Of a DNA stretch of 57,512 nucleotides, positions 3,766-8,558 are shown in pieces (the first letter of the stretch is position 1; every line of letters begins with the position of its first letter). The position numbers and the translations under genes were made by a program. Under the pieces are notes generated by a model. That model ran no database searches, was not told the origin of the DNA, and saw only the letters and a program-made list of their open reading frames with translations. Origin of the DNA: Acidimicrobiia bacterium (GTDB lineage: Bacteria; Actinomycetota; Acidimicrobiia; IMCC26256; JACDBD01); assembly GCA_035637335.1 (NCBI GenBank), contig DASPXI010000065.1, forward strand, positions 1 to 57,512, in the 5' to 3' direction.

Positions 3766-4542
3766 TTAGCCGTCCTGCGACCGCACCCGTGACCCCATGA
3801 TCCCCTGCTCCGCCCGGAGCGCCGCCATGCTCACGTTGCGGCCCGTGTACGACGAGGGCTGCCGGAGCATCCACACAATGCCTTCGGCCGGGACTTCGGT
3901 CGGCTCCCAGTCGGAATGATCGAAGCCCGGAGTGTTGGCGACGAAGCCTTCTGACGCCACGGGCACATCGATGCGGAACGTGTTTACCGCGATCCGGTGC
4001 GGTTGCAGCTGCGTGGCGAGCGAAACAGTGAGGTGCTCCAGCGCGATCTTCGACATCCCGTAGATCATGAGACCGGGGATGTAGTCGAGCGCGGCGGCGG
4101 ACGAGATGTTGAGGATCGCTCCCTCGCCCTGCTGCTTCATGTGCGGGATCGCCGCGTGCGCCACCACCAGCGGGGCGCGCAGGTTCACGGCCATCATGAG
4201 GTCGTAGCGCTTCATCGGCACGTCGATGTCGCCGGGGAACGTGATGGCGGCGTTGTTGACGACGATGTCGAGCCGTCCGAAGTGCTCGACGGTCGTGGTA
4301 ACCATGCGCTCGACGTCTTCCTCTTGCGCGAGGTTCGTGGGCACGGCGAGAGCGTCGCCTCCCGCGTCGGTGATGCGGCGGACCGTGGCGTCGATAGTGC
4401 CCGGAAGCCGTAGCGGACTCTCGTCGGTGGCCCTCGCCGCGCACGCGACCGCCACACCCTCGTCGGCGAGCGCGATCGCGGTTGCAGCCCCGACGCCGCG
4501 ACTGGCGCCGGTCACGATCGCGACTTTCCCATCGAGGTTCAC
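3766..4542 (-). CDS. SDR family oxidoreductase
   Basis: VTGASRGVG, NNAA and YGMSK motifs; GTG 4542 overlaps the ligD stop (GTGA). Confidence 0.92.
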   Translation of the reverse strand: MNLDGKVAIVTGASRGVGAATAIALADEGVAVACAARATDESPLRLPGTIDATVRRITDAGGDALAVPTNLAQEEDVERMVTTTVEHFGRLDIVVNNAAITFPGDIDVPMKRYDLMMAVNLRAPLVVAHAAIPHMKQQGEGAILNISSAAALDYIPGLMIYGMSKIALEHLTVSLATQLQPHRIAVNTFRIDVPVASEGFVANTPGFDHSDWEPTEVPAEGIVWMLRQPSSYTGRNVSMAALRAEQGIMGSRVRSQDG

Positions 4543-5465
4543 GCGCCGCGCTTTCCCGAGGTGCGCAACGCCGGCAGCTCTTGCTCGAGTTCGAGGTTCG
4601 GACGGTACAGATCTCCGAGCTGCTCGACCCGCTCGAGTACATCGCCGGCCTCGAACATCAGCGCGTCGGTGTCGGGATCGCCGGTATCGAGAGCGTCGCT
4701 GACCTCGTCCCAGGTCACCGGAGCCGACACGGTCGGCCGCGCCTTGCCGCGCAGTGAGTATGCGCACACGGTCGTCTTGTGCCGGTCGTTTTGGCTCCAG
4801 TCGACGAACACTTTCCCGGGCCGCTCGTCCTTCCTCATGATCACCGTCACACGGTCCGGCTCGCGCTTGGCCAGGAGCTGTCCGAGGGCGCGCGCGAACT
4901 CCTTCGTGTCCTCGTCGGTCACGTCGGTATGGAGCGGCACGGCGAGGTGGAGGCCCTTCGACCCCGACGTCTTCACGAGACACTCGAGGTCGAGCTCGGC
5001 GAGAACACCGCGCAGGTCCAGGCCGACCCGGCAGCAGTCGAGCACGGTGGCGCCGGGCCCGGGGTCGAGGTCGAACACCATCGAGTCGGGACGGTCGGGG
5101 CTCGACACCCGCGCCTGGGGCGTGTGCAGCTCGAGCGCGGCCATGTTCGCCGCCCACACGAGCGACGGAAGGTTGTCGAGCACGCACTGGACGAGGTCGT
5201 CGGACACCACGGCCGTGCGCATCCACTTGGGCGCGTGCGTCGGGCACCGCTTCTCGAAGAACGACTGACTGGCGACACCGTCGGGCCAGCGCACGAGCGT
5301 CACCGGCCGGTCGGCGAGGTGCGGCACCATCACCGCACCGATGCGGGCGTAGTAGTCGACGACCTGGCCCTTCGTGAATCCGGTCTCGGGGTACAGGACC
5401 TTGTCGAGGTTCGACAGGCGTAGGCGCCGGCCGTCGATCTCGACGTCGGTACCCTTGGGGCTCAA
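4539..5465 (-). CDS. ligD: NHEJ LigD polymerase/primase domain protein (stand-alone)
   Basis: LSNLDKVLYP, RWPDG, FFEK, LELH, FDLDPG, KTSGSKGLH and VFVDWSQN motifs; no ligase domain present. Confidence 0.9.
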   Translation of the reverse strand: MSPKGTDVEIDGRRLRLSNLDKVLYPETGFTKGQVVDYYARIGAVMVPHLADRPVTLVRWPDGVASQSFFEKRCPTHAPKWMRTAVVSDDLVQCVLDNLPSLVWAANMAALELHTPQARVSSPDRPDSMVFDLDPGPGATVLDCCRVGLDLRGVLAELDLECLVKTSGSKGLHLAVPLHTDVTDEDTKEFARALGQLLAKREPDRVTVIMRKDERPGKVFVDWSQNDRHKTTVCAYSLRGKARPTVSAPVTWDEVSDALDTGDPDTDALMFEAGDVLERVEQLGDLYRPNLELEQELPALRTSGKRGA

Positions 5466-5547
5466 GGTGCCCCTGTGAGAGATGTGCGCCGGCCCTTCAC
5501 ACCTGCGACGCTATAGGGGCCGGCGGGCGGCAAGGAGGTGGGCCGAC

Positions 5548-6441
5548 GTGCCCAACGCGATCTGGAGCGGGAACATCAGCTTCGGGCTCGTCACCGTGCC
5601 CGTGAAGCTCGTGTCGGCCGTGCGCTCGAAGGACGTGCGGTTCAACCAGCTCGAGGAGGGGACCGGCGCCCGCATCCGCTACAAGCGGGTCTCGGAGGCG
5701 ACGGGTGAGGAAGTTCCCCAGGAGCGGATCGTCCGAGGCTCCGAGATCGCCCCCGGCCAGTACGTCGTCATGGAGCAGGACGAGCTCGAGAAGCTGCGCC
5801 CGAAGGCGAGCCGCACGATCGACATCTCGGACTTCGTCGAGCTCCAGCAGATCGACCCGATCTACTTCGAGCAGCCGTACTACCTCGTGCCCGATCGCGG
5901 CGCGGCCAAGCCCTACAAGCTGCTCCTCGACGCGATGTCCGACCTCCAGAGGGTCGCGCTCGGCAAGATCGTGCTGCGCGGCAAGGAGCACCTCGTCGCC
6001 ATCCGCCCGCTCGACGGCGCTCTGTGCATCGAGACGATGCGCTACGCCGACGAGGTGATCGCGGTGGAGAGCCTCGAGGGGCTGCCCGGCGACGAGGTCA
6101 AGCCGGACGAACGGGAGCTCGACATGGCCCGCCAGCTCATCGAGGCGCTGGCCACCGACTTCGAGCCCGAGAAGTATCACGACGAATACCGCGAGCAGGT
6201 GCAGGAGCTGATCGAGAAGAAGGCCGCGGGCGAGGAGATCGTCGCCGAGCCCATGGTCGAGGAGCCGGCCAAGGTCGTGGACCTCATGGCCGCGCTCGAG
6301 CAGAGCCTCGCCCGAGCCGGCAAGGGTCAGGCTGCGGGCGCGTCCAGGCGCGCCGCGGCGCAGAAGCCGGCGAAGGCGGCCGCGAAGAAGACCAAGAAGG
6401 CAGGCGCCAAGAAGGCAAGCCGCTCCCGCAAGTCGGCCTGA
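5548..6441 (+). CDS. ku: Ku protein (NHEJ) with Lys/Ala-rich C-terminal tail
   Basis: AIWSGNISFGLVTVPVKL, IDPIYFEQPYYL, YHDEYR and VVDLMAALEQSL; GTG 5548 preceded by AAGGAGG. Confidence 0.95.
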   Translation: MPNAIWSGNISFGLVTVPVKLVSAVRSKDVRFNQLEEGTGARIRYKRVSEATGEEVPQERIVRGSEIAPGQYVVMEQDELEKLRPKASRTIDISDFVELQQIDPIYFEQPYYLVPDRGAAKPYKLLLDAMSDLQRVALGKIVLRGKEHLVAIRPLDGALCIETMRYADEVIAVESLEGLPGDEVKPDERELDMARQLIEALATDFEPEKYHDEYREQVQELIEKKAAGEEIVAEPMVEEPAKVVDLMAALEQSLARAGKGQAAGASRRAAAQKPAKAAAKKTKKAGAKKASRSRKSA

Positions 6442-6723: not shown

Positions 6724-6939
6724 CTAGCCGCCGCCCTCGTACTTGAACGAGATGTTGACCTTGGCCCGATACGCCGACACGCGGCCGTTCTCGATGGTGA
6801 CGTCGAGCTCGGAGACCTCGGCGACGCGCAGGTCGCGGAGTGACTGCGACGCCTGCGCCACCGCGGCGGAGACCGCCTGCTCGAACCCCTCGGAGCTCGT
6901 CCCGACGAGCTCGATGACCTTGTAGACACTGTCCGCCAT
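6724..6939 (-). CDS. Dodecin (flavin-binding) family protein
   Basis: SVYKVIELVGTS...AV..A..SLR.LR...YRAKVNISFKYE; 71 aa; GAGGGGG Shine-Dalgarno. Confidence 0.93.
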   Translation of the reverse strand: MADSVYKVIELVGTSSEGFEQAVSAAVAQASQSLRDLRVAEVSELDVTIENGRVSAYRAKVNISFKYEGGG

Positions 6940-7038
6940 GTATCCCCCTCACGTCGTGCCAGGCCACGGCCGGATGCCGCTCGACAAACCCTTCCGGCCG
7001 TCGCGGCCGGCGTCAAGGGTCGGTCGTAGGATCCGGCA

Positions 7039-7506
7039 ATGACCGAGAGCTCGACCGTGCCGGTGGGAGCGCCGGCGCCGGACTTCACGCTGCCCCGGTC
7101 GGGCGGCGGCGAGGTGGCGTTGTCGTCCTTCCGGGGCCGGCCCGTGGTGCTCGTGTTCCTGCGCGGCTACACCTGACCGTTCTGCCGGCGGCACCTCGCG
7201 CAGTTGCGCGACGACTACGAGCGCTTCACCGCCTTCGGCGCCGAGTTGCTGGCGATCTCGGCCGAGCCGCCGAAGCGCTCCGAGGCCTACCTCCGGTCGC
7301 ACCCGCTTCCGTACCCGACGCTGATCGATCCCGACCACGAGGTGTTCGATGCGTACGACGTGACCAGCCGCCTGATCTCTCTCGGCCAACGACCGGGATT
7401 GTTCGTCATAGACGCCGAGGGGATCGTGCGCTTCGAGGAAGTCGGCGCGCAGCAGTACAACATCCCGCCCAACGAGAAGGTGCTGGGCGTGCTTGAGTCG
7501 CTCTAG
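7039..7506 (+). CDS. Peroxiredoxin-like (AhpC/TSA, thioredoxin-fold) selenoprotein; codon 46 UGA probably read as Sec
   Basis: ATG 7039 reads MTESSTVPVGAPAPDFTLP...PVVLVFLRGYT-(TGA 7174-7176)-PFCRRHLAQLRDDY..., in frame with the 100-aa track ORF. This gives a UxxC motif and a 155-aa product. TAGGAT -10 box lies 6 nt before the ATG. Confidence 0.85.
7177..7211 (+). promoter_or_regulatory. Putative bacterial SECIS element
   Basis: Hairpin TCGCGC-AGTT-GCGCGA (7196-7211); the apical loop starts after a 25-nt spacer from the UGA and has G in position 2 followed by U. Confidence 0.6.
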
Positions 7507-8558
7507 GTCGCGACCTGGACGGTCTTGCCGTCGCGCCATTCACGCAACACGAGGTACTGGCCCTTGAGCGCGGCGTGGTCGTAGTGGCCGAAGCCCATCG
7601 TGGTGCCCTCGACGCCCGAGGTGGCCGGAAGCTGCTTCACGCGTTCCAGTCCCTCCTTGAGCCCGGCGCGGGTGAGATGGTGGGCGCGGGCGATGGCTTC
7701 CCCCACGAGACGGCCCATGTCGTACGCCGCGCAGCCGATGGGCCCTGCGGCAGCGCGCTTCGACTTCTCTCGCAGGCGCTGCCGCATCGTGTTGTTGTCG
7801 GCGACGCCGTCGAGGTACTCCCAGCCGGCCCAGCCATCACGCCAATCGGGACGCGCGTAGCCGAACATCAGCGAGCTGTTGGCGAGGACGGGCACCGACC
7901 ATCCGAGATCGGCGAGCGCGACTGCGACCGCGCGCGAAGTCACGCCGAGACCGAGGTAGACGAGCGCATCGGGGCCCGTTTCACGTAACCGGGCAACGAC
8001 GGGCTTCACGTCCTCTGCCAGCGGCGAGATCGCGGCGACGCCGGTGGTGTCGAGGTCGTGCAGCGCCCGAGCGTCCTCGAAACTCTCGGCGTAGCCCCGC
8101 CCGACCGGTGACTGGTCGTGGATCACCGCCGCGCTCCGCAGCCCCCGCTCCGCCAGTCGGCGTGCGAGCAGCGGCGGCTCCTCCTCCAGCGAACCGATCT
8201 GGTAGTGGAACATGAACTCGCCACGCGTGCGCTCGCCGCCGGTGTAATTGATGCACGGAATCCCGCGGTCGTCGGCGAGCGGCCGGGCGATGAGCCCGTT
8301 GTCGCTGATCGACGGGCCGAGGATCAGCAGCACCCCCTCCTCGTCGAGCTCGCCGAACGCGGTCGTGACGTCGTGTGCCGTACCGAGCGGGAGACCCCGC
8401 GCAAGCCGCGTGACGAACTCCGCTGGCCGGTCGAGTCGGCCGGTGGCGGTGACCTCGTCGAGTCCGAGGCGGACGGCTTCCTCGAAGCTCGCGCCGCCAT
8501 CGGCCTGCGGGAAGTCGAACAGCAACCCGACCAGGATCGGCGCCGGGGGCGACTGCAT
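7503..8558 (-). CDS. LivJ/AmiC-type (type I periplasmic-binding fold) ligand-binding protein, no signal peptide
   Basis: GVLLILGPSISDN, AAVIHDQSPVG, GPDALVYLG and AYDMGRL patterns; no N-terminal hydrophobic signal. Confidence 0.75.
   Translation of the reverse strand: MQSPPAPILVGLLFDFPQADGGASFEEAVRLGLDEVTATGRLDRPAEFVTRLARGLPLGTAHDVTTAFGELDEEGVLLILGPSISDNGLIARPLADDRGIPCINYTGGERTRGEFMFHYQIGSLEEEPPLLARRLAERGLRSAAVIHDQSPVGRGYAESFEDARALHDLDTTGVAAISPLAEDVKPVVARLRETGPDALVYLGLGVTSRAVAVALADLGWSVPVLANSSLMFGYARPDWRDGWAGWEYLDGVADNNTMRQRLREKSKRAAAGPIGCAAYDMGRLVGEAIARAHHLTRAGLKEGLERVKQLPATSGVEGTTMGFGHYDHAALKGQYLVLREWRDGKTVQVAT

Follow-up and report, generated by a model that had tools for sequence, protein, structure and literature searches.

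A plain list of open reading frames places a gene of 100 amino acids, beginning at a TTG codon, at position 7204 of the window, the whole 57,512-nucleotide stretch of contig DASPXI010000065.1 analyzed here from an Acidimicrobiia bacterium (assembly GCA_035637335.1). The same frame is open upstream of this start, interrupted by a single TGA, which raises the question of whether that triplet ends a gene or encodes selenocysteine (Sec) within a longer one, and of what kind of enzyme the longer gene would encode. A preliminary description, made from the sequence alone, had argued for the longer gene, namely a hidden peroxiredoxin-like selenoprotein with its UGA at the first Cys of a CxxC motif and a hairpin of the bacterial Sec insertion (SECIS) type downstream.

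Translation with TGA read as U yields one frame from ATG 7039 to the TAG ending at 7506, 155 amino acids in length, whose sole internal stop is the TGA at 7174–7176. The extent of the frame, its single interruption and the TTG start of the listed gene are thus all as the preliminary description had them. The recoded motif reads GYT-U-PFC, or U46-P-F-C49, placing the UGA at the first Cys of CxxC as proposed, and homologues carry Cys in this column. The Pfam domain PF00578 spans the TGA, matching residues 9–132 of the read-through product with an E value of 3e-33 and 114.7 bits against a cut-off of 26. The features of the locus are collected in the table. A promoter scan returned 0 sites, and a terminator scan returned one terminator-like site, located within the coding sequence and at chance level. 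Two metatranscriptomes contained 0.16 and 0.06 of the words, the pieces listed giving only short or partial cover of the gene, with contigs as the only material compared.

Table. Features of the predicted selenoprotein locus and its neighbors, in window coordinates.
Feature	Position	Strand	Basis
Shine-Dalgarno-like AGGA, ending 7 nt before the ATG; putative function	7028..7031	+	sequence
Predicted AhpC/TSA-fold UxxC selenoprotein coding sequence, 155 aa	7039..7506	+	translation with TGA=U; PF00578 match; pLDDT 88.2; 25 full-length orthologues
Arg42 codon, at the Pro of the peroxiredoxin PxxxTxxC motif	7162..7164	+	R in 80/80 loci; alignment to 2ywn and 2cx3
Predicted Sec46 codon, in-frame TGA	7174..7176	+	TGA in 25/25 orthologues and 78/80 GTDB loci
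Cys49 codon, likely resolving Cys	7183..7185	+	C in 77/80 loci; G, A or S in three TGA loci
Hairpin of bacterial SECIS type; stem of 6 bp, loop AGUU (7202-7205)	7196..7211	+	covariation; low synonymous diversity; consensus
TTG Leu codon, loop and first 3' stem base; false start of gene callers	7204..7206	+	conservation; database fragments
Arg118-Pro119 codons; Pro119 at the thioredoxin cis-Pro and peroxiredoxin catalytic-Arg place	7390..7395	+	P in 79/79 and R in 77/79 covering rows
Dodecin gene, divergent neighbor	6724..6939	-	PF07311, E 5e-25
Periplasmic-binding-protein-6 family gene, convergent neighbor	7503..8558	-	PF13458, E 2e-22

Conservation of the TGA was assessed in two sets of relatives. 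Both were drawn from one genome collection, with overlapping and related members, and their counts are therefore not independent. A full-length orthologue (52–99% identity) is present in 25 of 61 genomes searched (the organism's own and 60 relatives), and TGA occupies the identical codon in 25 of 25, with one internal TGA in each. One of the 25, the unpublished genome G012, accounts for a single row in the counts, in alignment A1 and in the selA and selD tallies, and none of the claims depends on this genome by itself. From 153 relatives confirmed in a GTDB scan, the best 80 were retained for locus counts; by their record titles these 80 of 153 loci belong mostly to Acidimicrobiia and other Actinomycetota, and also to Dehalococcoidia, Anaerolineae and single other groups. 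Within this best 80 of 153, codon 46 is TGA in 78 loci, TGC in 2 and a Trp codon in none.

More distant full-length proteins carry Cys at the Sec46 column, as in P0124, which contains both FLRGFGCPFC and SLGQRP; a CxxC motif is found in 102 of the best 150 representatives, and W stands at this column in 2 of the best 150 distant representatives. The UGA therefore aligns with the Cys of homologues, and the alternation of Cys and UGA at codon 46, put forward in the preliminary description as a check, is seen both among the 80 loci and against the distant proteins. In a quick protein tree both TGC loci fall among other Cys proteins and away from the majority of TGA loci; the tree has long branches and a midpoint root, and we draw from it no claim on the order of events or on transfer. 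Three Chloroflexota orthologues (L118:3130, L127:3133 and L130:3139) have the second Cys replaced, reading UPFG, UPFA and UPYS, and keep the TGA and a hairpin. The loss of Cys49 with retention of both suggests that the essential residue is Sec.

The hairpin downstream, TCGCGC-AGTT-GCGCGA, has a loop that begins 25 nt past the TGA. The bacterial SECIS consensus, as given in the available text of PMC13188914, comprises a loop of 3–9 nt with a G among the first two positions, a stem of 4–16 bp, a spacing of 16–37 nt and an energy of at most −7.5 kcal/mol. Judged by a proxy that we built ourselves in place of bSECISearch, the hairpin conforms to it, with its AGUU loop, 6 bp, 25 nt and −9.4 kcal/mol. 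The strict form of the proxy is passed by 58 of 78 TGA loci and by 0 of 2 TGC loci, and the consensus-hairpin proxy is also passed by 357 of 5000 random TGA triplets from the same 69% GC genome. The folding energy of the hairpin in one genome gave no signal against shuffles (z −0.62, 0.47 and 0.88), and an Rfam scan of 6900–7600 returned three chance matches far under gathering scores and no SECIS family. In its single-genome form the hairpin is at chance level, and it is significant only through conservation and covariation.

In 79 sequences, 70 of them distinct, the stem is paired in 98.6% of 420 cells compared with 78.6 when shuffled, and two-sided changes fall in 68 cells compared with 22.0. 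The covariation score, computed on a structure taken from the window sequence, is 0.485, against 0.103 for shuffles and 0.018–0.104 for slid controls; the number of pairs that change on both sides, 4, does not exceed that in shuffles (93 of 500). Without prompting, RNAalifold arrived at the same six pairs. Synonymous diversity in codons +6 to +13 falls to 0.075, compared with 0.27–0.34 in the flanking stretches and 0.31–0.34 at a distance from the hairpin. The loop reads AGTT in 74 of 78 TGA loci and its Leu codon is TTG in 76 of 78, while TTG makes up 6.8% of Leu codons genome-wide. Judged by eye, both TGC loci, with loops GCTT and AGCT, still have a complementary stem, and the TTG is kept in one of them. 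Compensatory changes in the stem often alter amino acids, giving AQLR, SQLR, TQLR or RQLT, and the alignment shows cleanly how compensatory changes that also alter the protein maintain a bacterial SECIS. The SECIS-like hairpin with its 25-nt spacer, as first described, is thus borne out by its fit to the published consensus and by its covariation across relatives.

The genome (2.14 Mb in 110 contigs, 59.88% complete) encodes selA on contig C78 (473.6 bits, cut-off 267.9), selB on C94 (261.9 bits, cut-off 242.25) and a tRNA-Sec with anticodon TCA on C49 (68.5 bits, cut-off 47). The first residues of selB follow selA immediately, where C78 ends, and the contig ends of C78 and C94 have 34 bases in common. 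Neither selD (best match 25.5 bits against a cut-off of 125) nor fdhA (TIGR01553) was found in this 59.88%-complete assembly, a negative that carries no information at such completeness. The earlier suggestion that the organism decodes Sec is accordingly supported by selA, selB and tRNA-Sec, all above curated cut-offs, with selD as the one gap in an assembly that is 60% complete. Same-genus genomes contain selD in 14 of 18 cases and a selA match in 17 of 18. Of the genomes bearing the orthologue, 24 of 25 have a selA match (one of these partial) and the 25th has selD; conversely, the orthologue is missing from 20 of the 21 genomes in which selA has no match. We conclude that the UGA is very likely decoded as selenocysteine. 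By the known bacterial pathway, SelB carrying Sec-tRNA would bind the AGUU hairpin 25 nt downstream and insert Sec at codon 46, and when selenium is absent the ribosome would stop after 45 residues.

Sec machinery has been reported in Actinomarina, another Acidimicrobiia lineage, in the accessible part of a preprint (bioRxiv 10.64898/2026.04.03.716425). The selD matches in relatives contain no internal stop in any of the 41 listed, so that SelD in these relatives would seem to carry Cys, in contrast to the Sec form that has been reported for Actinomarina.

To what enzyme does the recoded frame belong? The predicted structure is a single domain (mean pLDDT 88.2) in which the motif sits at the start of helix 47–58 and Pro119 lies just ahead of strand 120–124. 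Aligned with the solved peroxiredoxins 2ywn and 2cx3, Arg42 takes the place of the motif Pro, Sec46 that of Thr/Ser, Cys49 that of Cys and Pro119 that of the catalytic Arg. The peroxiredoxin motif PxxxT/SxxC(U) is absent, as the protein has R42-G-Y-T-U46-P-F-C49 where 2ywn has P-A-A-F-T-Q-V-C, and so is the catalytic Arg, with Pro119 in 79 of 79 rows and an Arg one residue earlier. According to the available text of PMC2757866, thioredoxins (CxxC) and cytochrome maturation proteins (CMPs) have a cis-Pro at this place where peroxiredoxins have Arg, and the N-terminal Cys is the typical nucleophile. Among the best 150 representatives CxxC is paired with Pro at the Pro119 column in 72 rows and with Arg in none; Arg at this column accompanies only T/SxxC, in 4 rows. 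By inspection there is no N-terminal signal or membrane anchor. From the missing peroxiredoxin signature, the pairing of CxxC with Pro, the losses of Cys49 and the lack of a signal we infer a cytoplasmic thiol-disulfide oxidoreductase, and we consider it probable, on these sequence grounds, that the protein is one, in which a UGA-encoded Sec is the nucleophile and a Cys resolves. From its place where helix 47–58 begins, the Sec46 selenolate would attack a substrate disulfide or other oxidized thiol, Cys49 would resolve the intermediate as an Se-S bond, and a cellular reductant would reset the enzyme. Of the label "peroxiredoxin-like" in the preliminary description, the fold has stood and the chemistry has not.

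The most serious competitor is a recoded selenium peroxidase in which Sec46 would attack a hydroperoxide as in glutathione peroxidases, aided by Arg42 and Arg118, with Cys49 as an optional resolver. The best structural matches are the peroxiredoxins BCP and AhpE (TMq 0.82–0.88), with ResA lower at 0.75, an order that would suit a peroxidase too; the closest solved folds are indeed the BCP/PrxQ and AhpE peroxidases. R42 (80/80), R118 (77/79) and H52 (80/80) are near-invariant, Cys49 is absent in 3 of 78 TGA loci, and a Sec in the first position agrees with the UxxT of GPx-like proteins in the available text of PMC13188914. Against this, the peroxiredoxin signature is absent and the cis-Pro position is kept, and the NCBIfam models for PrxU (38.4 bits, cut-off 270) and BCP (47.7 bits, cut-off 140) fall far short. 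We regard a peroxidase as possible, with the evidence leaning away from it. A broader form of the idea is more doubtful. It holds that the gene belongs to an unnamed, widespread and nearly always Sec-containing subfamily of soil Acidimicrobiia and Chloroflexota that bridges thioredoxin-like and peroxiredoxin chemistry on a BCP-like scaffold, with a thioredoxin cis-Pro and a first-position nucleophile, Arg42 and Arg118 activating Sec46 for peroxide reduction and the second Cys being optional. If true, an abundant soil selenoperoxidase would be hidden in databases as 100-residue fragments.

That such fragments exist is plain from a protein search, which gave 237 matches. The best 120 of these are all 99–104 residues long, none has a CxxC, and 119 of the 120 start at the TTG of the hairpin; the named entries among them are peroxiredoxin and the others are unnamed. 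The recoding signal contains this TTG, so the signal itself supplies the false start. Standard annotation was expected to truncate the gene, and all 120 of these best matches are indeed fragments. The rival reading takes them at face value, as products of a pseudogene or split gene in which translation really ends at the UGA and a protein of 100 aa begins at TTG 7204. It can cite the annotation of the best 120 of 237 matches, the high conservation of the TTG, and TGA as the commonest stop in the genome, ending 420 of 747 long coding-like frames. However, in two phyla both halves stay in frame with no other stops, the interrupting codon is TGA in every case and falls each time in the Cys column, and the presence of the orthologue tracks that of the Sec machinery. 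The TTG-start fragment would, in the predicted structure, be without the active site and the first core strand, and the loop of the hairpin accounts for the TTG. A pseudogene or split gene is therefore very improbable. The gene is real, well supported and systematically mis-annotated, and an error repeated in all 120 best database matches is here corrected.

Still less credible is a genome-wide change in the meaning of UGA, to Trp or some other amino acid, or a read-through that inserts Cys or Trp. The W in 2 of the best 150 distant representatives is in its favor, but close homologues alternate with Cys only, and of the 30 tRNAs found by ARAGORN the tRNA-Sec alone has a TCA anticodon. With TGA still the most frequent stop codon, the genome uses no reassigned code. 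That the TGA is a misread or misassembled TGC or TGG, conceivable in a fragmented assembly of 110 contigs, has next to no chance of being correct and is refuted by the TGA of orthologues in 24 other genomes, and contigs of four soil DNA runs cover 6900–7218 with 0, 0, 4 and 3 differing letters, none listed at 7174–7176, in a comparison that used contigs rather than raw reads and in which the best-matching runs may be the source sample.

The protein fits the known "Prx-like" UxxC class, and as a case it is real but ordinary. As defined in the available text of PMC1088965, this class, then of 22 sequences, has UxxC in place of TxxU; "Prx-like 1" (pfam00578, UxxC) counts 225 sequences in the accessible part of PMC2398784, and Table 1 of PMC13188914, in the text available, ranks a Prx-like UxxC/UxxU thiol:disulfide oxidoreductase class as a high-confidence prediction. 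The class has been catalogued since 2005 and is predicted, not biochemically characterized. Our protein shares with it the PF00578 domain, UxxC for TxxU, Cys homologues and a downstream bacterial SECIS, a likeness of domain and motif. The gene's own group, mostly from Acidimicrobiia and Chloroflexota assemblies among the best 80 of 153 loci, carries the signature F-L-R-G-x-x-U-P-F-C-R-R-H, S-L-G-Q-R-P and G-x-Q-Q-W/Y.

The read-through protein reached the cut-off of no NCBIfam family. The best match, the SelL-related redox protein NF040769 (E 6e-24, residues 12–109), resembles it in fold and first-position Sec but scores 84.7 bits, under the cut-off of 120, and leaves the C-terminal third unmatched. 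BCP/PrxQ, AhpE and PrxU (PxxxTxxU) are the closest solved folds and have the APDFTL N-terminal extension in common with it, but differ where it has Arg42 for Pro, Sec46 for Thr/Ser and Pro119 for the catalytic Arg; Sec is first in the motif here and last in PrxU. ResA/TlpA proteins likewise begin a helix with C/UxxC and have Pro in the cis-Pro column (ResA at the TMq given above), but the N-terminal anchor or signal is lacking here by inspection, and NF002854 scores 58.1 bits against a cut-off of 170.

Our literature search, to which subscription journals were mostly closed, found no paper on this specific subfamily, and neither "actino" nor "acidimicrob" occurs in the available text of PMC13188914. 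BSepDB holds 57,630 selenoproteins, with at least 181 Acidimicrobiia rows in its input list (PMC13326102, as far as its accessible text goes), so members of the gene's group may already be catalogued there, and related families may be among the supplements of the Actinomarina preprint. Current models are unchanged, the class, the recoding mechanism and the use of Sec in Acidimicrobiia being already in print.

The surrounding genes were considered as a functional clue and set aside. The stop codons of the selenoprotein gene and the convergent binding-protein gene overlap at 7503–7506 in the palindrome CTAG. The binding-protein gene is retained in 21 of 80 loci, Ku in 19 and LigD in 19, all in closer relatives, and the best 80 of 153 loci show no conserved operon around the selenoprotein gene. 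Dodecin, binding protein, Ku and LigD are kept among close relatives only and give no clue to a substrate. The Ku gene and a divergent gene for a LigD primase-polymerase domain, both of non-homologous end joining, lie at 4539–6441.

A genome-wide scan for further UGA codons was noisy, with 239 coding-like sites and then 360 after a frame filter, and the six additional candidates reported here were chosen by eye, as a list neither complete nor unbiased. All six read-through products match families across the TGA, two of them above curated cut-offs: a WAxxUGC selenoprotein (L136:1263-2336, minus strand, G000:C30; NF041054, 520 bits, cut-off 300) and a UGSC selenoprotein (L137:1327-1851, minus strand, G000:C72; NF041046, 156.7 bits, cut-off 125). 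Two rhodanese and CBS proteins with the motif C-H-D-x-x-U-D-M (L133:974-1621, minus strand, C38, and L134:927-1616, plus strand, C86, both in G000) reached no NCBIfam family, and their genes have near-identical 8-bp hairpins with a GUG loop. An AhpD/CMD-family protein (L135:1476-1958, plus strand, G000:C50) has C-P-I-U (CxxU) and a hairpin with an AGUUG loop. The sixth candidate is a SelL-related paralogue with RHFG-U-LLC (L132:1429-1968, plus strand, G000:C103; 109.8 bits, under the cut-off of 120), which has the same AGUU hairpin as our gene, likewise 25 nt after the TGA. With seven candidates in a 60%-complete genome, soil Acidimicrobiia join those lineages in which selenium goes mainly into small redox proteins.

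Numerous other AhpC/TSA paralogues with one TGA occur among the matches listed, all of them in genomes where selA or selD is present. Contigs of other soil organisms match the window from the TGA through the hairpin and diverge upstream, at 7173–7174, which suggests that a near-identical UGA-to-hairpin sequence is in use by other families.
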